From Eledone cirrhosa (lineage: Eukaryota): DNA of 64,000 nt. Shown one piece after another: positions 9,142 to 60,842 of the stretch. Location: positions 366,854,001 through 366,918,000 of the forward strand of contig OZ024741.1 in assembly GCA_964016885.1 (NCBI GenBank). Reading direction: 5' to 3'. Both the position numbers and the translations under genes were made by a program. The stretch's first letter is position 1. The number at the start of each line of letters is the position of its first letter. Under the pieces are notes generated by a model that was not told where the DNA came from, searched no databases, and saw only the letters and a list, made by a program, of their open reading frames with translations.

Positions 9142-9659
9142 AGTTTTTTATTTATCTAATACCCGTTCATCATAATTTTATGTTAGATGCTTTCAGATAT
9201 ATTCTAAACACCAGTTTGATTACTAAATCCATTTAAAGTCTTGATTTTATCTTAGAGCATTATATCAATAAACATGTCAATACAATTTATATAATGAACT
9301 AGCAGAAGTGCCTGGCGTTGCTCAGAGTTTAATTGCTTTAAAGTACTTTTAATGATTCCACTTAATTATGATTATTGAGGCATTGAAAGTAAATACGGGT
9401 AAGTTTGAAAATATACAATAGCATCTACTCACCATATGTCAGACCGGCAAGACTGTAGTGGTGCTGAATAGAGGAGTCACAACACCTCTCTGTAGACCAC
9501 ATTTTTTGTTCTGCCTTTGGGCGCAAGTATAAATAATTTCTGCTTGCATCCCACTCTTGAGCGGGCGACGTATAATTGGCCGTGTGAGAAGCACGGCTGG
9601 GCTAAATGGAGGCCTGCCGTTGATAGCGTTTGGCCTTGGGACTTGTTGATTGACATCGC

Positions 9660-11545
9660 GAAGCAAAGTTTAACGGGTAATTGAAGTCGGCGCAGAGTAC
9701 AGGGGCATTCCTTACCTGATGGAGTTAATGGTATTCTGGGTATGAAGACGTTTTCGCCGCAGCCTGTGAGAATTGTGGCTTCAATTACATGCGGCAGGAG
9801 GTTCTTACCACTAACCGTGTTCCGTTGCAGAGACGTGGTGGTTCCAGGTTCCTCAACAGCATCACTGGAGTCCCAACTTTGACTTGCAGTTCATGAGGTG
9901 GCAGTCCAGAGAGATCCAAGGAATTGAGGAATTGTGTGGAAAAATCGTCAACCTCATCTTTGTCCACAACTTTGTCCACAGATTTGTAGGTACGGAGGTG
10001 TCCAGGAATGCGTTGCAGAAGGTCCTCATTGAATTTTGCAATGGAGACATTTTTGGGAGCCAACATGACTCTATCGCACAGCCAACTCGTGTTTTTGTAG
10101 TTGATGGCCATATCGGGAAAGACAGAGACTGTGAGGTTGTCAACAGTGTCGACAACGGTGCCTACTTGCGAGACTGCTATTTCTCCAGCTGCATCTGAAA
10201 GTGCAGTGCCGTCACCAACTGTTAAGAGGTCCTTTGAGAGGTCGGCTGATGAGTGGTCGCCGAACAGTTGGGCTCTCCTGTTTGTTGTGAGGGTTAGAAT
10301 TGTCACTTCCTGCCACAGGGGAGATGACTTAATGCAAGCCCCCACAGTGTCAGCCGTGGTGGCTTTTGGAACAACTGGAAGAGTTTGTCGAAAATCGCCA
10401 GACAGCAGTAGAGGTACTCCTCCCATCGGCCGGTTGCATTCCCTGATGTCTCGTAGGGTCCTGTCTAACACCTCAAGGGACCCTTTATGGGCCATTGTGC
10501 ATTCATCCCACACAATTAGGTGGCATCTTTTCAAGACTTCCGCTTTGTTAGAGTCCTTGGTGATGTTGCAGGTTATTGTGTCGTCTGAAGTCGTGTTGAA
10601 TGGTAGTTTAAATGCGGAATGAGCTGTCCTACCTCCGGGCAGCAGAGTTGTGGCAATCCCAGAAGAAGCCACAGCCAGGGCGATTCCTTTTTGCCGTCGC
10701 ACTTTGGCGGCCCGCCGTTGATCCTGCAACAATTTCGGCTCGTTTTCATTGATGAACAGTTCAAGGGCGTCAACATCGTAGGCAGTTTCCTGAATTATGC
10801 CCGTCGGAAGTTTGTCTGAGCCCGTTTGCTGAACTTTTGGAAGTGCATAGAATGGAAGGTCATTGCCGCCAGCAGTTAGGATTTTGTCCTCGATGTCAAT
10901 GAGAGCTTTGTTGAAGAATTCGTCGCTGAGTCGTACGTCGGAATGAGGGAGTAGCAGTTGTCCTTGGTGTATGTAGTCATCGGAAAGGTCCTCTCTGCAT
11001 TTGTCCCATAAGGATACAGGGTCGCTTAACTCGCATGTCTGCAGTAGCACCGCAAAGAGTTGCTGAAGAGTTCGCGCTGAGCGTATTGTAGCTGCCTCCG
11101 CCAATGTCGCATCCCACTGAGCGCCATCTTCCAGTAGACCCTGTGTAAGGCAGGCTGCGCGGAATGAAGTACAAACCTCTCCGTTGATTGTTTTTGAAAG
11201 ATGTCGGTCCTACCACCTCATGCAATAGAAGGCGGAGATAAAAGCATTCCTGTTGGTTAGGATGAATGGTGAACACTCTCCCAAGGGTAGGGGACATTTT
11301 AATGTCTGGATGTCCCTCAACGGGTTGTCCTTTCACCCTTCTTAACCAAATTCTGTTGTTTGTGTTCCATGTGTAGTATGATGGCACCTGAGAGTAGAAG
11401 AGGGTCTTGGCGAAGGGATCGTTTCGGCATAACTTATAAAATGCTGTAAGTGTGGTGTCCTTGGGTTCCTCTGCTATCTCAGCAGCGGTGGAGGTGGTGA
11501 AGTAGACTCTTTGACCGTTTTCAAGGTGCACCACCAACTGTTTAA
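9660..11545 (-). pseudogene. Helitron RepHel remnant (Pif1-family helicase), frameshifted; Rep domain and Walker A missing
   Basis: ORFs 9785-11104 and 10977-11675 contain VASSGIATTLLPGGRTAHSAFKLP, LIVWDECTM, GDFRQTLPV, LLRNLEPPRLCNGTRL, VHLENGQRVYF and ECFYLRLLL. Confidence 0.9.
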
Positions 11546-12175
11546 ATAATAGGTCAAACCTGTAAGCCAACCCGTCTGAGTTATAGCACAAAAGAGCGTA
11601 AACAGGGGCGATATTTTGGAGCACACTGGAAAATAAATCATCGAAATCGGAGGTTCCTGAAAAAAGGTTTTTCATTATTTTTTTGTCTCATATTGCAAAA
11701 AACAAAGAAAAAAAATTACAAAAAGGACAACAATAAAATATAATGTCTTTGTTGAGATTCAAGTAAATGAATGCTTAAGCATCGTTATGATTACGTTTGT
11801 TGTTTTATAAATTCATCTGTTGCTTTTGAATATTTGTTATTTGATGTAAAATGTAACATTGAGAGATTCGCGTTCCTAAACGAAGAGGGGGAATGATCTA
11901 TTATAGAGAGAGGGAAGAGCAACGGAGAGAATAAAGCTAAGAAACCATAAGGAGGTGTGTTAAACCTCGAAGCATGAAGAGAGTAAAGCAGTTAAATTAT
12001 AGAGAGGGGGAGTAATCTATTATAGAGAGCGGGAAGAGCGATGGAGTGAGTAAAGCTATGTTTGTTGTATAAATTGATGTGTTGCTTAGTTTTCAAAGTT
12101 TGTATCGCGTTCCTTGAAAAGAAGTTTTGTCGCAGTTGTAAATTGTAATGGTGATAGGGTAGTAGACAGAGGCAG

Positions 12176-14220: not shown

Positions 14221-14278
14221 AAGACTATACTTCACTGATGAAGCCATAATAATACTGAAACATGTCTAGAGTTGTCTT
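14221..14278 (+). ncRNA. Decayed minimal type I hammerhead ribozyme
   Basis: acttca CTGATGA ag...ct GAAA catg TC tagagt, with outer aagac/gtctt pairing; stem II only 2 bp. Confidence 0.5.
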
Positions 14279-15130: not shown

Positions 15131-15224
15131 TCCATTGATCTGAATGGATGAGAAGCAAAGTTAATCTTGGCAGGACTTGAACATAGAGCATAAGTAGCCA
15201 GAATAAATGCCATGGTATTTATCT

Positions 15225-16649
15225 TGATGGTCTAATGACACAACCAGTTCCTCTGATGGTCTAATGGCACAGCCAGTTCCATTGATGGTCTAATCACACT
15301 GCCAATTCCCTTGATGGTCTATCGACACTACCAATTCCAATGATGGTCTAACAACACAGCCAATTCCTTTGATGGACTTACAACACTGCTAGTTCTTTTG
15401 ATGGTCTAATAACACAGCCAATTCATTTAATGGTCTAATAACACAGCCAATTCCTTTGATGGTCTAATAACACAGCCAATTCCTTTGATGGTCTAATAAC
15501 ACAGCCAATTCATTTAATGGTCTAATAACACTGCCAATTCATTTAATGGTCTAATAACACAGCCAATTCCTTTGATGGTCTAATCACACTGCCAATTCCT
15601 TTGATGGTCTAATCACACTGCCAATTCCTTTGATGGTCTAATGACACAGCCAATTCCTTTGATGGTCTAATAACACAGCCAATTCCTTTGATGGTCTAAT
15701 CACACTGCCAATTCCTTTGATGGTCTAATGACACAGCCAATTCCTTTGATGGTCTAATCACACAGCCAATTCCTTTGATGGTCTAATCACACTGCCAATT
15801 CCTTTGATGATCTAATGACACAGCCAATTCCTTTGATGGTCTAATAACACAGCCAATTCCTTTGATGGTCTAATCACACTGCCAATTCCTTTGATGGTCT
15901 AATAACACAGCCAATTCCTTTGATGGTCTAATCACACTGCCAATTCCTTTGATGGTCTAATCACACTGCCAATTCCTTTGATGGTCTAATGACACAGCCA
16001 ATTCCTTTGATGGTCTAATAACACAGCTAATTCCTTTGATGGTCTAATCACACTGCCAATTCCTTTGATGGTCTAATCACACAGCCAATTCCTTTGATGG
16101 TCTAATCACACTGTCAATTCCTTTGATGGTCTAATGACACAGCCAATTCCTTTGATGGTCTAATGACACAGCCAATTCCTTTGATGGTCTAATAACACAG
16201 CCAATTCCTTTGATGGTCTATCGACACTACCAATTCCAATGATAGTCTAACGACACTGCCAATTCCTTTGATGGTCTAATCACACAGCCAATTCCTTTGA
16301 TGGTCTAATCACACTGCCAATTCCTTTGATGGTCTAATGACACAGCCAATTCCTTTGATGGTCTAATAACACAGCCAATTCCTTTGATGGTCTAATCACA
16401 CTGCCAATTCCTTTGATGGTCTAATCACACTGCCAATTCCTTTGATGGTCTAATCACAATACCAATTCCATTGATGGTCTAGCGACACTACCAATTCCAT
16501 TGATGGTCTAACAACTCTGCTAGTTCCTTTGATGGTCTAATGACACTGCCAGTTCCTTTGATGGTCTAAAGACACAGCCAGTTCCTCTGATGGTCTAATG
16601 ACACTGCCAATTCCTCTGATGGCCTAAAGACACTGTCAGTTCCTCACCA
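15225..16649 (-). repeat. 29-bp minisatellite (~49 copies) amplified from the 5' head of a SINE
   Basis: Unit gatggtctaatcacactgccaattccttt; continuous with a SINE-A-like body at ~15150-15225 on the minus strand. Confidence 0.9.
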
Positions 16650-25867: not shown

Positions 25868-25997
<130 letters not shown>

Positions 25998-26236
25998 CAT
26001 TGTTGCATAATATATGCAGACAGATGGTGCAGTGCACCTTACTGCTGCATTAGTGCTGCAGAAACTTGAGTCCGGGAACCTTATAGGCACCCGTTTTACG
26101 TGTGTTGTGTTGAGGCAAATAACTATGTGTATACTCTGGTAATGTATCTTACATTGCCCATTGAGTGTGTTGAGATACAACCGGTACTGGCATTGATAAA
26201 TATGCTGGGTCTGTCAACCCTTATTATATATATATA

Positions 26237-26339
<103 letters not shown>

Positions 26340-26407
26340 ATATTTGGGGAGGGTCATATTTGCGTAATATTGCCAGAATTAATAACATATATATATATAT
26401 ATATATA

Positions 26408-26848
26408 CATACTATTGTACGTCTGTATACATATATGTATGTACGTATACATACATACTTACATTTAAGTAAGTGCCATACTAAGAGTGAGAAATGAAAT
26501 TTCGTTTTCATTTTTTTTCAACTTATCCATTTCGGTATGCCTGACCGATTTAACTCACTCAATATGCAAATTAGGCTGCTCAGCCGTTAATTTTCATAAG
26601 GAAAGTATATACTTTCGAACGTTCAACTATCTGGCAGATGGGTATACGGTGCTGATGATAGCTAACAAGCTGGAAACTAGTACATCGTTCCTGTGGCAGT
26701 GTTGAACAAAAAGGTGACGTGGTTGCCTTAACACCGTATGGCATAAATTCAGGCTGTTCAGTTTGTTTACAAACGAACAAAGCGGCGTTATAATAAGCGT
26801 CCGCTAAACTGATGCGTGCATATATGTATGTGTACCTGTATGTATATA

Positions 26849-26881
<33 letters not shown>

Positions 26882-26996
26882 GCATGCTACTGTACGTCTG
26901 TATACATATATGTATGTACGTATACATACATACTTACATTTAAGTAAGTGCCATACTAAGAGTGAGAAATGAAATTTCGTTTTCATTTTTTTTCAA

Positions 26997-27001
<5 letters not shown>
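26408..27001 (+). mobile_element. Retrozyme/Penelope-pLTR-like non-coding element, 475-bp unit (~1.25 copies), inserted in (TA)n
   Basis: ~118-bp direct repeat at ~26408-26526 and ~26883-27001; central hammerhead; homologue at 34015-34748. Confidence 0.8.
26646..26688 (+). ncRNA. Minimal type I hammerhead ribozyme
   Basis: ACGGTG CTGATGA TAGCT aaca AGCTG GAAA CTAG TA CATCGT; palindromic stem III ACTAGT; GUA site. Confidence 0.85.
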
Positions 27002-27045
<44 letters not shown>

Positions 27046-27049
<4 letters not shown>

Positions 27050-27930
27050 AAAAAAAGATGAAATCGAAAATGCAACTGGAGTCTTATTTTTAAAAAAATA
27101 TATATATTTATTTGGTTCCTTTACCAGTTTCGCAGTTCTTCTGCTTTTCAAAAGTAGAGTTGAGATGGAGGGTCTGTGGTTTTTCTATCATCTGGTTGGT
27201 CTCTGAATGTTACTTGTTTTATATGGAAAAAGTGGCTCGAAATGCCATGTTTTTCGAGAAGTAATTTGATTGGTTGGTCAATAATTATATTAAATTTCGC
27301 ACTTGTTCGCGTTACAAAGTTCTTCAAACAAGGGGGGGGGGGGGGGGGGTGTCACGGGTTGTTTTTTCATATATGAGTGTTTGAATTTCTTTTTACTTAA
27401 AAAAAAGGGGGCTCACGAAGGCTTTTTTTAAATAAACGTAATTTGATTGGTTATAAATGAAATTATGGCTGTCACGTGAACAAGTTTTCATTAAATTTTT
27501 GCGCCCTTATTTGGAAATCTATTCTGTAGCATTTTTAGAGAATTTTATGACAAGTAAAAGATAATGGTCAAGAGAAATTGGATGGGAGAATTGTTCTGGT
27601 TCAGTGAATATGGTTAGTTCGCTGGGGTGTCAGAATTCAGATTTTCTATTGAATAAAGAAAGTAAAGATATGTATGTTTATTTGTGTGCTTGTGTGTGTG
27701 TGTGTTGTGTGTTTTGTGTGTGTATTTGAATTTCTTTTTACTTTAAAAAAAAAGGGGTCTCACGAAGGCTTTTTTTTTAATAAACGTAATTTGATTGGTT
27801 AAAAATGAAATTATGGCTGTCACGTGAACAAGTTTTCATTAAATTTTCGCACCCTTATTTGGAATCTATTCTGTAGCCTTTTTAGAGAATTTTATGACAT
27901 TTTTTAAGTAAAAAGAAATTCAAACACACA
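27046..27930 (-). mobile_element. Penelope-pLTR-like element with internal tandem duplication and short inverted end
   Basis: ~175-bp direct repeat at ~27379 and ~27724; inverted piece 27903-27927; hammerhead near the (TA)n-abutting end; partial homologue at ~60485-60620 (+). Confidence 0.65.
27117..27156 (-). ncRNA. Minimal hammerhead, U3-A8 variant
   Basis: Minus strand: CTT TTGAAAA GCAG aagaa CTGC GAAA CTGG TA AAG. Confidence 0.6.
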
Positions 27931-27963: not shown

Positions 27964-28039
27964 TAGAAGTGGTTAGACAACAGTTAGTTCACCATACCGA
28001 GAACAATTGTTTCACCTTAGCGGATCCTCAGCTCGTAAT
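27964..28039 (-). ncRNA. 76-bp hammerhead-bearing fragment in a TA/CA tract (hammerhead 27998-28035)
   Basis: Minus strand: CGAG CTGAGGA tCC gctaa GGt GAAAC aatt GTT CTCG; same family as 54756-54899. Confidence 0.65.
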
Positions 28040-29255: not shown

Positions 29256-29333
<78 letters not shown>

Positions 29334-30412
29334 GAGAAAGCCTTTGACAGAGTTCCTCGTGCTGTAATCTGGTGGGCTCTTAGAAAACTAGGAGTAGATG
29401 AATGGCTTGTGAAAGCTGTACAAGCCATGTATAGGGGAGCAGTCAGCAAAGTTATGATTAGCAATGAGTATAGCGAGGAATTTAGTGTTCAGTTCGGTGT
29501 CCACCAGGGCTCCGTTCTTAGCCCTCTCCTGTTCATCATCGTCCTGCAGGCAATAACGGAGGAGTTTAAGACCGGATGCCCATGGGAACTCTTGTATGCA
29601 GATTACCTCACACTTATAGCTGAATCTATGGTAGAACTAGAGAAGAAATTCCAAACTTGGAAGCAGGGGCTAGAAAGAAAGGGTCTCAAAGTCAACATGA
29701 CAAAGACTAAGGTCCTTGTAAGTAGACGAGAAAACAGAACCCAGATCCCCTCAGGGAAATGGCCTTGCTCAGTATGTAGGAAAGGTGTAGGTAGGAACTC
29801 CATTCTCTGCCCCAAATGCAAACAATGGGTACACAAGAGATGTAGCGGGATCTCAGGGAGCTTAATTAAGAATGTAGGCTTCACATGTAGCAGCTGTGCT
29901 GGGACAGCAAGCAGCAAACAGCCACAGGAAACAAGTACCACCAATCTCTGGGAGGGTTCTGTAGAAACAGTAGACAGCTTCTGCTACCTAGGTGACCGAA
30001 TTAGCAGCGGAAGTGGATGTTCAGAAAGTACAATAACTAGGGTAAGAACGGGATGGAAGAAGTTCAGGGAACTACTGCCACTGCTAGCTGCAAAAGGCTT
30101 CTCCCTCAAAATGAAAGGCAGACTGTATGATGCGTGTATCCGAACAGCAATGTTACATGGTAGTGAGACCTGGGCGCTGAAGGTAGAAGACTTACGTAGA
30201 TTAGAAAGAAACGAAGCCTGCATGCTCCAATGGATGTGTAATAGTAATATACGCAAACGGCAAAGCATGAATGAATTGAGAGAGAGACTGAGCATAAGAG
30301 GAATCAAATGCTGTGTGCAGGAGAGGCGGTTGTGTTGGTATGGACATATGATGCCTATGAAGGATGACAGCTGCATAAAAAGGTGCAGAGCATTAGAAGT
30401 CAATGGAAACTG
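29334..30412 (+). pseudogene. RTE-clade LINE reverse transcriptase fragment, 5'-truncated
   Basis: [26 protein letters not shown] (normally YADD), GLKVNMTKTK, FCYLG, MLHGSETW, RRLCWYGH; the rest of the ORF runs into SINE and low-complexity DNA. Confidence 0.92.
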
Positions 30413-34014: not shown

Positions 34015-34021
<7 letters not shown>

Positions 34022-34742
34022 TATGTACACGTACATACATATATGTATACAGACATACAGTAGTATGTATACATATATACATACATGCACACATATATAT
34101 ATGTACGTACCGCTTAATACGGGATGTTTGTTTGCAAACACACCGAGCATTATAATAAATGTTCGGTGAATCCATACGTACATATATATATGTGTGCATG
34201 TATGTATATATATATACTACTGTACGTCGGTATACATATATGTATGTACGTGTACATACTTATATTTAAGTAACAGCCGTACTAAGAGTGGGAAATGAAA
34301 TTTCGTTTCATTTTTTCCGTTTATCGTTTTCGGTGCACCTGGCCGATTAACCCACTCGATATGCAAATTGGGTTACTCAGCCGTTAATATGCATAAGGTA
34401 AGTATATACGTTCTACAATCTGGCAGGAAGGTATACGTTGCTGACGATAGCTAATAAGCTTGAAACTAGTACAGCATTCCTTTGTCAGTGTTGAACAAAC
34501 GAGCAACGATGGTTGCTAGACACTACGGCTTAATACGGGATGTTTGTTTACAAACACTCCGAGCATTATAATAAATGTTCGGTGAATCCATACGTACATA
34601 TATATATATGTGGGCATGTATGTATATATATATATACACACTACTGTACGTCTGTATAAATATATGTATGTACATGTACATACTTATATTTAAGTAACAG
34701 CCATACTAAGAGTGGGAAATGAAATTGTGTTTCATTTTTTAT

Positions 34743-34748
<6 letters not shown>
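34015..34748 (+). mobile_element. Retrozyme/Penelope-pLTR-like element, 416-bp unit (~1.5 copies) with inverted 5' segment, in (TA)n
   Basis: gcttaatacgggatg at 34112 and 34528; 34015-34109 is the reverse complement of ~34176-34265; central hammerhead. Confidence 0.82.
34435..34477 (+). ncRNA. Minimal type I hammerhead ribozyme
   Basis: ACGTTG CTGACGA TAGCT aata AGCTT GAAA CTAG TA CAGCAT. Confidence 0.82.
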
Positions 34749-41404: not shown

Positions 41405-44400
41405 CACTTCATTGTTCTTTCATACTTCCATTACTGCATACTTACTTTCTGTTACACTTCAACTCTTTCATACTTCCATTCCTGTATACTTACTTTCTGT
41501 TATACTTCCACTCTTTCGTAATTCCGTTCCAACATACTTACTTTCTGTTATACTTCCACGCTTTCATACTTCCATTCCTGCATACTTACTTTCTGTTACA
41601 CTTCAACTCTTTCAGAATTCCATTCCTGCATACTTACTTTCTGTTATACTTCCACTCTTTCATACTTCCATTACTGCATACTTACTTTCTGTTATACTTC
41701 CACTCTTTCATACTTCCATTACTGCATACTTACTTTCTGTTATACTTCCACTCTTTCATACTTCCATTCCTGTATACTTACTTTCTGTTATACTTCCACT
41801 CTTTCATAATTCCATTCCAGCATACTTACTTTCTGTTATACTTCCACTCTTTCATACTTCCATTCCTGCATACTTACTTTCTGTTATACTTCCACTCTTT
41901 CATACTTCCATTCCTGCATACTTAATTTCTGTTATACTTCCACTCTTTCATACTTCCATTCCTGCATACTTACTTTCTGTTATACTTCCACTCTTTCATA
42001 CTTCCATTCTTGCATACTTACGTTCTGTTATACTTCCACTCTTTCATACTTCTATTCCTGCATACCTACTTTCTGTTATACTTCCACTCTTTCATACTTT
42101 CATTCCTGCATACTTACTTTCTGTTATACTTCCACTCTTTCATACTTCCATTCTTGCATACTTACTTTCTGTTATACTTCCACTCTTTCATGCTTCCATT
42201 CCTGCATACTTACTTTCTGTTATACTTCCACTCTTTCATACTTCCATTCTTGCATACTTACTTTATGTTATACTTCCACTCTTTCATGCTTCTATTCCTG
42301 CATACTTACTTTCTGTTATACTTCCACTCTTTCATACTTCCATTCCTGCATACATACTTTCTGTTATACTTCCACTCTTTCATACTTCCATTCCTGCATA
42401 CCTACTTTCTGTTATACTTCCACTCTTTCATAATTCCATTTCTGCATACTTACTTTCTGTTATACTTCCACTCTTTCATACTTCCATTCCTGCATACCTA
42501 CTTTCTGTTATACTTCCACTCTTTCATACTTCCATTCCTGCATACATACTTTCTGTTATACTTCCACGCTTTCATACTTCCATTCCTGCATACTTACTTT
42601 CTGTTATACTTCCACTCTTTCATACTTCTATTGCTGCATACCTACTTTCTGTTATACTTCCACTCTTTCATGCTTCCATTCCTGCATACTTACTTTCTGT
42701 TATACTTCCACTCTTTCATAATTCCATTCCTGCATACTTACTTTATGTTATACTTCCACTCTTTCATACTTCCATTCCTGCATACTTACTTTCTGTTATA
42801 CTTCCACTCTTTCATACTTCCATTCCTGCATACTTACTTTCTGTTATACTTCCACTCTTTCATAATTGCATTCCTGCATACTTACTTTCTGTTATACTTC
42901 CACTCTTTCATACTTCCATTCCTGCATACTTACTTTCTGTTATACTTCAACTCTTTCATGCTTCCATTCCTGCATACTTACTTTCTGTTATACTTCCACT
43001 CTTTCATACTTCCATTCCTGCATACTTACTTTCTGTTACACTTCAACTCTTTCAGAATTCCATTACTGCCTACCTACTTTCTGTTATACTTCCACTCTTT
43101 CATAATTCCATTCCTGCATACTTACTTTCTGTTATACTTCCACTCTTTCATACTTCCATTCCTGCATACTTACTTTCTGTTATACTTCCACTCTTTCATA
43201 ATTCCATTCCTGCATACTTTCTTTCTGTTATACTTCCACTCTTTCATACTTCCATTTCTGCATACTTACTTTCTGTTATACTTCCACTCTTTCATAATTC
43301 CATTCCTGCATACTTACTTTCTGTTATACTTCCACTCTTTCATACTTCCATTCCTGCATACTTACTTTCTGTTATACTTCCACTCTTTCATACTTCCATT
43401 CCTGCATACCTACTTTCTGTTATACGTCCACTCTTTCATACTTCCATTCCTGCATACTTACTTTCTGTTATACTTCCACTTTTTCATACTTCCATACCTG
43501 CATACTTACTTTCTGTTATACTTCCATTCCTGCATACATACTTTCTGTTATACTTCCACTCTTTCATACTTCCATTCTTGCATACTTACTTCTGTTATAC
43601 TTCCACTCTTTCATACTTCCATTCCTGCATACTTACCTTCTGTTATACTTCCACTCTTTCATACTTCCATTCCTGCATACTTACTTTCTGTTATACTTCC
43701 ACTCTTTCATAATTGCATTCCTGCATACTTACTTTCTGTTATACTTCCATTACTGCATACTTACTTTCTGTTATACTTCCACTCTTTCATAATTCCATTC
43801 CTGCATACATACTTTCTGTTATACTTCCGCGCTTTCCTACTTCCATTCCTGCATACCTACTTTCTGTTATACTTCCACTCTTTCAAACTTCCAGTCCTGC
43901 ATACTTACTTTCTGTTATACTTCCACTTTTTCATACTTCCATACCTGCATACTTACTTTCTGTTATACTTCCATTCCTGCATACATACTTTCTGTTATAC
44001 TTCCACTCTTTCATACTTCCATTCCTGCATACTTACTTTCTGTTATACTTCCACTCTTTCATAATTGCATACCTGCATACTTACTTTCTGTTATACTTTC
44101 ACTCTTTCATACTTCCATTCCTGCATACTTACTTTCTGTTATACTTCCACTCTTTTATAATTCCATTCCTGCATACCTGCATTCTTACTTTCTGTTATAC
44201 TTCCATTACTGCATACTTACTTTCTGTTATACTTCCACTCTTTCATACTTCCATTCCTGCATACTTACTTTCAGTTATACTTCCACTCTTTCATACTTCC
44301 ATTCCTGCATACTTACTTTCTGTTATACTTCCACTCTTTCATAATTGCATTCCTGCATACTTACTTTCTGTTATACTTCCACTCTTTCATACTTCCATTC

Positions 44401-47400
44401 CTGCATACTTACTTTCTGTTATACTTCAACTCTTTCATGCTTCCATTCCTGCATACTTACTTTCTGTTATACTTCCACTCTTTCATACTTCCATTCCTGC
44501 ATACTTACTTTCTGTTATACTTCCACTCTTTCATGCTTCCATTCCTGCATACTTACTTTCTGTTATACTTCCACTCTTTCATACTTCCATTCCTGCATAC
44601 TTACTTTCTGTTACACTTCAACTCTTTCAGAATTCCATTACTGCCTACCTACTTTCTGTTATACTTCCACTCTTTCATACTTCCATTCTTGCATACTTCT
44701 GTTATACTTCCACTCTTTCATACTTCCATTCCTGCATACTTACCTTCTGTTATACTTCCACTCTTTCATACTTCCATTCCTGCATACTTACTTTCTGTTA
44801 TACTTCCACTCGTTCATAATTGCATTCCTGCATACTTACTTTCTGTTATACTTCCATTACTGCATACTTACTTTCTGTTATACTTCCACTCTTTCATAAT
44901 TCCATTCCTGCATACATACTTTCTGTTATACTTCCGCGCTTTCCTACTTCCATTCCTGCATACCTACTTTCTGTTATACTTCCACTCTTTCAAACTTCCA
45001 GTCCTGCATACTTACTTTCTGTTATACTTCCACTTTTTCATACTTCCATACCTGCATACTTACTTTCTGTTATACTTCCATTCCTGCATACATACTTTCT
45101 GTTATACTTCCACTCTTTCATGCTTCCATTCTTGCATACTTTTTCTGTTATACTTCCACTCTTTCATACTTCCATTCCTGCATACTTACCTTCTGTTATA
45201 CTTCCACTCTTTCATACTTCCATTCCTGCATACTTACTTTCTGTTATACTTCCACGCTTTCCTACTTCCATTCCTGTATACATACTTTCTGTTATACTTC
45301 CACTCTTTCATACTTCCATTCCTGCATACTTACTTTCTGTTATACTTCCACTCTTTCATAATTGCATTCCTGCATACTTACTTTCTGTTATACTTCCATT
45401 ACTGCATACTTACTTTCTGTTATACTTCCACTCTTTCATACTTCCATTCCTGCATACTTACTTTCTGTTATACTTCCACTCTTTCATACTTCCATTCCTG
45501 CATACTTACTTTCTGTTATACTTCCACTCTTTCAAACTTCCATACCTGCATACTTACTTTCTGTTATACTTCCACTCTTTCATACTTCCATTCCTGCATA
45601 CTTACTTTCTGTTATACTTCCACTCTTTCATGCTTCCATTCCTCCATACTTACTTTCTGTTATACTTTCACTCTTTCATACTTCCATTCCTGCATACTTA
45701 CTTTCTGTTACACTTCAACTCTTTCAGAATTCCATTACTGCATACCTACTTTCTGTTATACTTCCACTCTTTCATAATTCCATTCCTGCATACTTACTTT
45801 CTGTTATACTTCCACTTTTTCATACTTCCATACCTGCATACTTACTTTCTGTTATACTTCCAATCCTGCATACATACTTTCTGTTATACTTCCACTCTTT
45901 CATACTTCCATTCTTGCATACTTACTTCTGTTATACTTCCACTCTTTCATACTTCCATTCCTGCATACTTACCTTCTGTTATACTTCCACTCTTTCATAC
46001 TTCCATTCCTGCATACTTACTTTCTGTTATACTTCCACGCTTTCCTACTTCCATTCCTGCATACATACTTTCTGTTATACTTCCATTCCTGCATACTTAC
46101 TTTCTGTTATACTTCCACTCTTTCATAATTGCATTCCTGCATACTTACTTTCTGTTATACTTCCATTACTGCATACTTACTTTCTGTTATACTTCCACTC
46201 TTTCGTAATTCCATTCCTGCATACTTACTTTCTGTTATACTTCCACTCTTTCATACTTCCATTCCTGCATACTTACTTTCTGTTATACTTCCACTCTTTC
46301 ATACTTCCATTCCTGCATACTTACTTTCTGTTATACTTCCACTCTTTCATACTTCCATTCCTGCATACTTACTTTCTGTTATACTTCCACTCTTTCATAC
46401 TTCCATTCCTGCATACTTACTTTCTGTTATACTTTCACTCTTTCATACTTCCATTCCTGCATACCTACTTTCTGTTATACTTCAACTCTTTCATACTTCC
46501 ATTCCTGCATACTTACTTTCTGTTATACTTCCACTCTTTCATACTTCCATTCCTGCATAATTACTTTCTGTTATACTTCCACTCTTTCATACTTCCATTC
46601 CTGCATACTTACTTTATGTTATACTTCCACTCTTTCATACTTCCATTCTTGCATACTTACTTCTGTTATACTTCCACTCTTTCATACTTCCATTCCTGAT
46701 TACTTACTTTCTGTTATATTTCCACTCTTTCATACTTCCATTCCTGCATACTTACTTTCTGTTATACTTCCACTCTTTCATACTTCCATTCCTGCATACT
46801 TACTTTCTGTTATACTTCCACTCTTTCATACTTCCATTCCTGCATACCTACTTTCTGTTATACTTTCACTCTTTCATAATTCCATTCCTGCATACTTACT
46901 TTCTGTTATACTTCCACTCTTTCATACTTCCGTTCCTGCATACCTACTTTCTGTTATACTTTCACTCTTTCATACTTCCATTCCTGCATACTTACTTTCT
47001 GTTATACTTCTACTCTTTCATACTTCCATTTCTGCATACTTACTTTCTGTTATACTTCCACTCTTTCATACTTCCATTCCTGCATACTTACTTTCTGTTA
47101 TACTTCCACTCTTTCATACTTCTATTCCTGCATACTTACTTTCTGTTATACTTCCACTCTTTCATACTTCCATTCCTGCATACTTACTTTCTGTTATACT
47201 TCCACTCTTTCATACTTCCATTCCTGCATACTTACTTTCTGTTATACTTCCACTCTTTCATACTTCTATTCCTGCATACCTACTTTCTGTTATACTTCCA
47301 CCCTTTCATACTTCCATTCCTGCATACTTACTTCTGTTATACTTCCACTCTTTCATACTTCTATTAATGCATATTTATTTTCTGTTATACTTTCACTCTT

Positions 47401-48850
47401 TCATACTTCCATTCCTGCATACTTACTTTCTGTTATACTTCCACACCTCCATTCCTGCATACTTACTTTCTGTTATACTTCCACTCTTTCATACTTCCAT
47501 TCCTGCATACTTACTTTCTGTTATACTTCTACTCTTTCATACTTCCATTCCTGCATACTTACTTTCTGTTATACTTCCACTCTTTCATACTTCCATTCCT
47601 GCATACCTACTTTCTGTTATACTTCCACTCTTTCATAATTCCATTCCTGCATACTTACTTTCTGTTATACTTCCACTCTTTCATACTTCCATTCTTGCAT
47701 ACTTACTTCTGTTATACTTCCACTCTTTCATACTTCTATTAATGCATATTTATTTTCTGTTATACTTTCACTCTTTCATACTTCCATTCCTGCATACTTA
47801 CTTTCTGTTATACTTCCACTCTTCCATACTTCTATTCCTGCATACTTACTTTCTGTTATACTTCCACTTTTTCATACTTCTTTCTTGCATACTTTCTGTT
47901 ATACTTCCACCCTTTCATACTTCCATTACTGCATACTTACTTTCTGTTACACTTCAACTCTTTCAGAATTCCATTCCTGCATACTTACTTTCTGTTATAC
48001 TTCCACTCTTTCATACTTCTATTCCTGCATACCTACTTGCTGTTATACTTCCACCCTTTCATACTTCCATTACTGCATACTTACTTTCTGTTATACTTCC
48101 ACTCTTTCATACTTCCATTCCTGCATACTTACTTTCTGTTATACTTCCACTCTTTCACACTACCATTCCTGCATACCTACTTTCTGTTATACTTCCACTC
48201 TTTCATACTTCCATTCCTGCATACTTACTTCTGTTATACTTCCACTCTTTCACACTACCATTCCTGCATACTTACTTTCTGTTATACTTCCACTCTTTCA
48301 TACTTCCATTTCTGCATACTTACTTCTGTTATACTTCCACTCTTTCATACTTCCATTACTGCATACTTACTTTCTGTTATACTTCCACTCTTTCATACTT
48401 CCATTCCTGCATACTTACTTTCTCTTATACTTCCACTCTTTCATACTTCCATTCCTCCATACTTACTTTCTGTTATACTTCCACTCTTTCATACTTCCAT
48501 TCCTGCATACTTACTTTCTGTTATACTTCCACTCTTTCATACTTCCATTCCTGCATACATACTTTCTGTTATACTTCCGCGCTTTCCTACTTCCATTCCT
48601 GCATACCTACTTTCTGTTATACTTCCACTCTTTCATACTTCCATTCCTGCATACTTACTTTCTGTTATACTTCTACTCTTTCATACTTCCATTCCTGCAT
48701 ACTTACTTTCTGTTATACTTCCACTCTTTCATACTTCCATTCCATTGTTCCCCCACCCTTTCATACTCCCACCATTTCATACTTCCATTCTGTTATGCTA
48801 CCATGTCATACTCACATTCTGTCATATTCTATTATACTCCCATTCTACCA
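41405..48850. repeat. 48-bp satellite (~150 units) built from three 16-bp subrepeats
   Basis: Unit catacttccattcctg-catacttactttctgt-tatacttccactcttt; explains the 16-aa periodic ORFs. Confidence 0.97.
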
Positions 48851-54755: not shown

Positions 54756-54899
54756 TAGAAGTGGTTACACAACAGTTAGTTCACCATGCCGAGAACAATT
54801 GTTTCACCTTAACGGATCCTCAGCTCGTAATCTGAGGACCCGCTAAGGTGAAACAATTGTTCTCGGTATGGTGAACTAACTGTTGTGTAACCACTTCTA
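54756..54899. ncRNA. Palindrome (68-bp arms, 8-nt spacer) of two opposed hammerhead-bearing halves; complete hammerhead 54790-54827 (-)
   Basis: Minus strand CGAG CTGAGGA tCC gttaa GGt GAAAC aatt GTT CTCG; the plus-strand half lacks the 5' stem I strand. Confidence 0.75.
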
Positions 54900-55033
54900 T
54901 ATAAATATATATATAAGTATATATATGTATGTATGTAGCAGTAATAACAAAAATAACAAAAATAACAAAACAAATGGCACAATAGATGGAATGGAAGAAA
55001 TATATTAGTTTAAGACTTTAAATATCAGGAAGA

Positions 55034-59890: not shown

Positions 59891-60842
59891 AAATTACCCA
59901 AGAGACCTCCAATGAGATATATCTTGGAGGAGGCCAGCTAAACCTGCAAAGGTGGGAGTTGTCACACACACACACACAATCAATACAGATCAAACCTTGA
60001 GCTGATCAATTGCGAAATACACATCACAGGCTAAAGCATACATCTAATATGCACCACATTCGCCTTCATTCCCCTTTCCATATATCTCCCACATCCTAAC
60101 ACTCCACCCCATACACAGGCCCCTATACCTACCTCCCCAATCCCCACACACATCCCCCACTAAGTAGGTGTCACAAAAAGCACCCAGCACACACTGTAAA
60201 TGTGGTTGGCATTAGGAAGGGCATCCAGCCATAGAAACCTAGCCAGAAACAGTTCTGTATGAGCAAGACACGGTCACCTGACCCAACTTGCCTCAAATAG
60301 GACAACCCATCTAACCCATGCTAGTGTGGAAAATGGACATTAAATGGTGATGTTATACATATATATATCCTGGAGAGGGATGGGCTTCGCCAGGCTTTAA
60401 ATGCCCAAGAAACACTGTATGTCAATACGGCGCCCCTACGATTCTATCGGAAGTTACGGGACCATACCATACTATATATATACATATGAGAAAAACCACA
60501 AACCCTCCATCTCAATTCTACTTTTGAAAAGCAGAAGAAACCGGTAAAGGAACCAAATAAATATATATTTTAAAAAAAAAAAGACCCCAGTTGCATTTTC
60601 GATTTCATCTTTTTTCCTTATATATATATAGTAGAATGTGTGTTTAAAATACCATAGCATTTAAAACATTCAAACATTAACTGATTGAACACTGAAAACA
60701 GGATATTTATTTTCTTTTTAAAAAAAATGACTGTCATTTTTTAAATAGAAAATAAACATCCTGTGTTGGCCGTCACATTCAGTCATAGCCAGCACGGACT
60801 GGAATAGAATTCTGTCGATCGATTGGTTATTGATTAGGTGAA

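Follow-up and report, generated by a model that had tools for sequence, protein, structure and literature searches.

The repeat at 26408–27001 of the analyzed window, a 64,000-nt stretch of the Eledone cirrhosa genome (contig OZ024741.1), is very probably a dispersed copy of a high-copy, non-coding hammerhead repeat that is mobilized in trans by a Neptune-type protein combining a reverse transcriptase (RT) with a GIY-YIG endonuclease (EN). At the sequence level, the family to which this repeat (hereafter, element 1) belongs falls under the definition of animal non-LTR retrozymes and appears to work like a non-autonomous Penelope-like element (PLE). The initial annotation had described a non-coding, retrozyme-like insertion that was reverse-transcribed from a template longer than one unit, and this description is supported by the sequence itself, by the family and by the mapping of the ends of its copies.

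Element 1 comprises 1.25 units of a 475-nt repeat (Table 1). The period and the greater-than-unit length claimed for it are borne out by the terminal copies, 26387–26526 and 26862–27001, which are 98% identical over 140 nt, about 119 nt of these not being plain TA. The element had also been placed within a (TA)n tract; this holds on the 3' side, where the (TA)24 tract lies clearly outside the element, whereas the TA run on the 5' side (26387–26407) coincides with the internal TA spacer of the unit. Within the unit, no open reading frame of at least 120 amino acids was found except a TA-repeat frame ending at 26468, and the GC content of 26001–27000 is 0.32, that is, below 50%. Pieces of two other repeats, at 26336–26386 and 25996–26224, lie between TA runs upstream of element 1, with 18 and 3 matches, respectively, in the fetched loci.

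Table 1 Coordinates of the retrozyme copies and adjoining features in the window
Feature	Position	Strand	Remarks
Element 1	26408..27001	+	5' end truncated within the TA spacer of the unit; 3' end is the family long end
Terminal repeat, first copy (spacer end and tail)	26408..26526	+	Repeat comparison
Octamer ATGCAAAT	26564..26571	+	Found in both subfamilies; part of a hairpin arm in the predicted fold
Type I hammerhead with extended stem I	26631..26699	+	Read from sequence and family alignment
Hairpin 1	26712..26728	+	Paired in both subfamilies (visual reading); its columns are not in register in alignment A2
Hairpin 2	26761..26774	+	Arms invariant, hence no covariation support
Hairpin 3	26782..26804	+	Two-sided changes at 4 of 8 pairs and at the closing pair
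TA/TG-rich spacer of variable length	26813..26941	+	Stops at the family short 3' end (about 26936–26941)
Tail, about 58 nt between short and long 3' ends	26942..26999	+	Terminal hairpin 26966–26989 and T run
(TA)24 tract at the 3' junction	26999..27046	.	Common to element 1 and the adjoining Neptune repeat
Neptune family A 3' UTR/pseudo-LTR fragment	27047..27899	-	Separate insertion; stops at its own short end
Element 2, second subfamily	34015..34748	+	Core 19.7% diverged; period 416–424 nt
Element 2, inverted arm	34015..34110	-	Stops at the short end

The type I hammerhead claimed for element 1 can be read directly from the sequence, and a 32-nt hammerhead pattern produced 23,785 exact matches in the 3.0-Gb genome (G000), compared with none for the reversed control. 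The core consists of CUGAUGA (26652–26658), GAAA (26673–26676) and GUA (26680–26682), with predicted cleavage after 26682; stem II contains five pairs (26659–26663 with 26668–26672), and stem I pairs 26647–26651 with 26683–26687 and extends through a bulge to 26631/26699. Stem III is made of the palindrome ACUAGU (26676–26681), which yields a single pair capped by a four-base loop. This stem III, one pair with a palindromic tetraloop, resembles the dimer-dependent type of axolotl and newt, for which PMC7229834 reports that a second hammerhead is necessary for efficient cleavage. Since the only hammerhead of element 1 has a stem III of this dimer type, the element is predicted to be unable to release a unit-length circle by itself; circles could come only from multi-unit copies, and element 1 is likely a dead-end monomer for circle making. 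An Rfam scan (E ≤ 1) recovered no hammerhead match, only microsatellite-driven microRNA look-alikes, and the minimum-energy structure of the isolated 81-nt hammerhead region is not the catalytic form (z −0.26 and −1.13). Between the subfamilies, N7, loop II and the base of stem II are the sole differences in the core and stems II and III. Lineage-level changes are found in none of the 24 columns of the core and stems II/III versus 100 of the 308 elsewhere, a result that is partly circular for the core columns, most loci having been picked by the hammerhead pattern. A pattern with the same stem III and another stem II gave 398 matches versus 68 in the control; the first 100 of these are mostly point mutants of the retrozyme family.

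Three hairpins downstream of the hammerhead were found where they had been placed (Table 1). The claim that they covary stands for hairpin 3 and, by eye, for hairpin 1, but not for the invariant hairpin 2; because a regex census returned zero matches for hairpin 1, the latter rests on the reading of the alignment. In the alignment of 21 diverse units (A2), the named structure of 30 pairs has 96.0% of its cells paired, and in 7 of these pairs both partners vary, a number reached in 1 of 500 shuffles (slid controls, 1–4). The swap of G-U for U-G that had been claimed in stem I is real: the pair G26649–U26685 is U-G in element 2, and across the 21 units it occurs as G-U in 9, U-G in 7, A-U in 3 and C-G in 1. 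This covariation rests on few related subfamilies, and the independent events are few. In both subfamilies, the fold of the non-TA core surpasses that of every one of 60 dinucleotide shuffles (z −5.1 and −3.1); these values were used in place of the whole-circle fold (z −8.4), which is inflated by the TA spacer.

Upstream of the ribozyme, the octamer (Table 1) is exact in 54 of 67 full units, and lineage-level change affects none of its 8 columns versus 100 of 300 elsewhere (p 0.04). As part of a promoter, the octamer is a speculative lead only, and it may instead be kept for RNA pairing. The promoter of newt satellite 2 presumably also includes an octamer. A TATA-like stretch at 26603–26612 was discarded as a conserved signal because 3 of its 10 columns vary, which is not above background conservation.

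The family is large. A 23-mer just downstream of the hammerhead has 29,011 exact matches in the genome (control, 0), and, as a rough estimate, the family would amount to some 30,000 units, or about 0.4% of the genome. Two samples were analyzed: all 55 loci with the first 100 hammerhead matches on contig C1, and the 14 additional loci drawn from the first 100 occurrences of the downstream 23-mer. The 55 loci of the first sample contain 81 arms with one to seven hammerheads (63, 10, 4, 1, 1, 1 and 1 arms, respectively), that is, at least two consecutive hammerhead units in 18 of the 81 arms. The units abut directly at a spacing of 416–630 nt, with the variation located in the TA-rich spacer; in one case (L083:3160–3640), another fold-back repeat is inserted into this internal spacer. 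Among other contig sets, which are not recorded as RNA, X1 contains variants of the family, X6 contains parts of it and X4 three short pieces; no family sequence was found in contig set X5.

Each copy has its 3' terminus at either of two fixed sites, the long end, just after the terminal hairpin and the T run, or the short end, 58–61 nt upstream. Of the 95 mapped 3' ends, 91 run into TA, and, with regard to target-site duplications, the junctions lie in TA runs. The 5' ends are scattered over the unit (85 mapped breaks; those inside the TA spacer are unmappable), and partial tandems, variable 5' truncation and inverted 5'-truncated arms are all present in the family. Among the 18 inverted double-arm insertions paired by a script, 16 join a long end with a short end and none joins two long ends (p 0.0007 versus 50%); of these 16, three are in one probably duplicated locus, whereas the two short-short pairs look like misassignments but were counted as misses, and several further long-short loci were left unpaired by the script. 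Elements 1 and 2 do stop at the identical place, as had been claimed. The description of element 2 as a diverged relative at 34015–34748 was correct as well but left out the inverted arm; the forward arm (34108–34748), with the hammerhead core from 34441, stops at the long end. At locus L093 (1500–2010 and 5630–5700), a seven-unit insertion is located between a PLE frame fragment and a 27-nt inverted copy of the start of that frame. Its junctions are TA runs of 25 and 5 units, which hints that insertion itself may contribute to the TA tracts.

This anatomy can be compared with that of PLEs. Partial tandems, an inverted 5' copy, a tail that is often single-ended and a (TA)n bias are given as PLE marks in PMC8557442; the PLE tail corresponds to the interval that separates two internal RT start sites on the RNA, and the two target strands are both cut and extended (PMC11167929). 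Judged by their ends, the retrozyme copies themselves carry this Penelope two-start tail signature.

The largest arrays stop at the same site. An array of 101 units over 52 kb (G000:C3:12271870–12324500) has a truncated 5' end and an exact long 3' end, and a second large array, of 25+2 units, ends at the same long end. The 101-unit array is built of blocks of recurring (higher-order) haplotypes, and because these blocks recur, it appears to be a satellite grown in place from one insertion by local duplication. Long arrays were dismissed as proof of rolling circle for the same reason, the haplotype blocks showing local growth instead.

The genome encodes 10,596 GIY-YIG candidates, among which we inspected 30 loci along with 20 long-ORF stretches. 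The latter represent six RT+GIY-YIG families (Pfam), five of which have a cysteine (CxxC) linker. This linker marks Neptune (clade name after PMC8557442), and the five coding families are putatively assigned to the Neptune type by the linker, without a tree. Intact-looking Neptune ORFs (938 aa) are present in the same genome, the 938-aa Neptune A protein being encoded near 145.87 Mb of G000:C1 (L061). Two ends joined to TA are likewise present in Neptune families A, C and E; in A and C, the long end is paired with the short end where both arms are seen, and the tail of Neptune A is 65 nt versus 58–61 nt in the retrozyme family. Within the window, the (TA)24 tract joins the Neptune A fragment, which contains a variant hammerhead near 27151, to element 1 in tail-to-tail orientation. 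The core of the Neptune A variant starts with UUGAAAA rather than CUGANGA, with a palindromic stem III, and copies that carry it are at 27047–27899 (−) and 60484–60620 (+) of the window and at L061, L062, L066, L070 and L072; the Neptune family E core is UUGAUAA, and both variants would escape standard CUGANGA descriptors.

A search for a Penelope element sharing the 3' end, which the initial annotation had proposed, returned a likeness of about 20 nt to Neptune A and no clear pseudo-LTR homology. The likeness joins unlike ends, the long end of the retrozyme and the short end of Neptune A, along roughly 20 T-rich positions (18 of 21 aligned; p 0–0.07 over six A comparisons, of 28 in total); no significant long-end likeness was found to Neptune C or E. 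A pattern of the shared 3' motif has 2,775 matches, although, having been written after both ends were seen, it is not independent. In the 30 GIY-YIG loci and the 20 long-ORF stretches, there was no BLAST homology beyond independent neighbouring insertions of the family. Neptune A is best regarded as a candidate helper only.

The window harbors several other repeats. Hammerhead-like motifs of unrelated repeats are at 14235, 23562, 35089 and 54832 on the plus strand and at 28031, 54823, 55068 and 63233 on the minus strand; 54760–54900 is a head-to-head inverted pair of one such repeat, of the same family as 28031. A 7.3-kb minisatellite with periods of 48, 96 and 144 nt occupies 41415–48787, and a 29-nt array in 48 copies occupies 15224–16627. 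Broken frames at 9477–11687 (−) resemble a Helitron Rep/PIF1 helicase, and a frame at 29330–30400 (+) resembles the C-terminus of an RTE-type LINE reverse transcriptase with a cysteine-rich insert.

Could the copies be truncated 3' ends (solo pseudo-LTRs) of an unseen autonomous Penelope-like element? Their insertion anatomy is identical to that of the coding Neptune elements, and the inspected GIY-YIG copies are a small share of the total. However, the 18 multi-hammerhead arms and both long arrays, with their 416–630 nt spacing, leave no room for an ORF, and no RT/EN was found fused upstream of a retrozyme copy in any of the 55 loci searched with six query proteins. Five of these loci contain unrelated RT/EN fragments that are antisense or lie at a distance of over 1 kb, and the six-protein query missed one flank with a PLE frame of another family, downstream of the element. 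The initial annotation had held that copies fused to an RT ORF would make element 1 a plain solo pseudo-LTR; with 0 of 55 loci fused, this alternative is largely refuted, and we consider it quite improbable. Even less credence goes to a satellite that spreads at the DNA level, by unequal crossing-over, extrachromosomal DNA circles or a rolling circle of the Helitron kind, and whose hammerhead is a legacy of an ancestor that is now dead. The local amplification evident in the 101-unit array and the microsatellite spacers inside the units would suit such a satellite, but dozens of dispersed loci bear marks of retrotransposition, namely 3' ends at two fixed sites, randomly placed 5' ends and inverted pairs of a long and a short end, and the compensatory changes concern single-strand pairing of one strand.

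A different question is whether the mobilized retrozyme uses circles at all. A cleaved linear monomer was rejected as the main template: insertions would stop at the cut, and only 1 of the 85 mapped 5' breaks lies within 6 nt of the cleavage site (2 of 14 within about 5 nt at hammerhead-independent loci), the count of 85 omitting L153, which overlaps L127, and the sample being biased towards intact hammerheads. Because the 5' breaks do not pile up there, the template spans the cleavage site and is either a ligated circle or an uncut multimer, and scattered breaks fit both equally. Nor does greater-than-unit length need a circle, because Penelope RT starts inside uncut RNA (PMC11167929). The same element and helper without a circle, with uncut multimers as the sole templates and the hammerhead a passenger or an RNA trimmer, have somewhat less than an even chance. 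In this vein, hammerhead cleavage was dispensable in vitro, hammerhead mutants left insertion unchanged and uncut RNA was the dominant substrate (PMC11167929); the stem III is of the weak, dimer-dependent type (PMC7229834); and the arms of L126, L123, L006 and L025 are mixed, with 13 of the 17 differences between adjacent units of L126 also occurring at other loci and L123 showing an ABAB-like order with a third haplotype at its start. On the other hand, near-identical units are found within L093, L098, L102, L104 and L112, and such homogeneous multi-unit insertions are most simply derived from one circle, although a homogenized donor array would also do. In L093, there is 1 mismatch between the arms versus 6.5 to the nearest other locus and, in L086, 0 versus 3; private variants are shared by all units and the inverted arm in some insertions (L093, L086, L104 and L102), which would favour one template copied repeatedly. 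Overall, only 10 of 35 inverted and 29 of 91 tandem pairs show less divergence between their two members than from the nearest other locus, which is a strict criterion if the family is star-shaped. The near-unchanged core and stems II/III at 19.7% divergence also suggest that cleavage is selected, and other animal retrozymes make abundant circles (PMC7229834). ABAB patterns were set aside as proof of dimer circles, given that the beginnings of the arrays in L123, L093 and L071 break the periodicity (10 of 14 sets run). All in all, we lean slightly towards ligated circles being a main template.

Mobilization in trans, the reading that we prefer, would proceed as follows. Multi-unit copies would be transcribed, and the Neptune protein would bind the RNA near the tail hairpin and nick one or both strands of AT-rich DNA. 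Reverse transcription would begin inside the RNA at either tail boundary and run through the hammerhead site into further units until the enzyme falls off, leaving 1.25-unit copies such as element 1, and priming from both nicked strands would yield inverted pairs. Circles would form when multimers are cut by hammerheads acting in the dimer-type mode and then closed by a host ligase, as has been described for other animal retrozymes, and the longest arrays would have grown further in place by local duplication. A more specific version, in which Neptune RT would roll round a ribozyme-made circle from two hairpin-flanking starts, with both strands primed, transcription from an snRNA-type DNA promoter, and inverted multi-unit insertions and 50-kb satellites as the products, is tentative and, on present evidence, rather doubtful; if true, this would be the first retrozyme with the helper class, the priming sites and the rolling-circle template all readable from the genome.

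Animal non-LTR retrozymes (PMC7229834 and the preprint bioRxiv 10.64898/2026.07.22.740005) are the same kind of non-coding tandem units with one type I hammerhead each; they are likewise AT-rich, with a predicted highly paired RNA, co-occur with Penelope-like elements and reach thousands to tens of thousands of copies. Units are 416–630 nt here versus 150–450 bp in PMC7229834 and 51–972 bp in the preprint, arrays reach 101 units here versus 62-mers in coral and up to 300 in the preprint, and the units here contain a variable TA spacer. The preprint labels as 'active' those retrozymes with at least two consecutive hammerhead units, which are found in the family but not in element 1, a monomer derivative. 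The preprint bases its case for a Penelope origin on co-occurrence and on homology of pseudo-LTRs, where our argument is from insertion anatomy, and it shows expression and circles; the words tail, TPRT and promoter are absent from its text as examined. With Neptune PLEs and derivatives such as MRC1 (PMC11167929 and PMC8557442), the family shares partial tandems, 5' truncation, an inverted 5' arm, a single-ended tail, (TA)n junctions and a hammerhead upstream of the 3' end; unlike these, it has no ORF, and its tail is about 60 nt compared with 30–40 nt. The full canonical core and extended stem I also differ from the variant or minimal motifs of the coding families in the genome. Newt satellite 2 is another tandem hammerhead repeat with a weak stem III and is cited, from a 1994 paper, as having an snRNA-type promoter (PMC2220036). 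Plant LTR retrozymes (PMC4918200) are also non-autonomous and hammerhead-bearing, with terminal direct repeats, but their hammerheads are of type III and present in both LTRs, they possess PBS/PPT, and their target duplications measure 4 bp, whereas here there is one type I hammerhead, outside the repeated ends.

The kind of element is thus already known, and what is apparently added is the Penelope two-start signature on a retrozyme; no report of this anatomy on a retrozyme was found in the full-text literature searched, supplements aside. The family can serve for testing which enzyme is responsible for moving animal retrozymes and what template it copies. The literature proposes Penelope-like helpers from co-occurrence and resemblance; here, the retrozyme copies bear the signature themselves. 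The two-start signature and Neptune ORFs in one genome provide defined priming sites for a direct in vitro test, and the family shows how a mobile RNA seeds satellite arrays.
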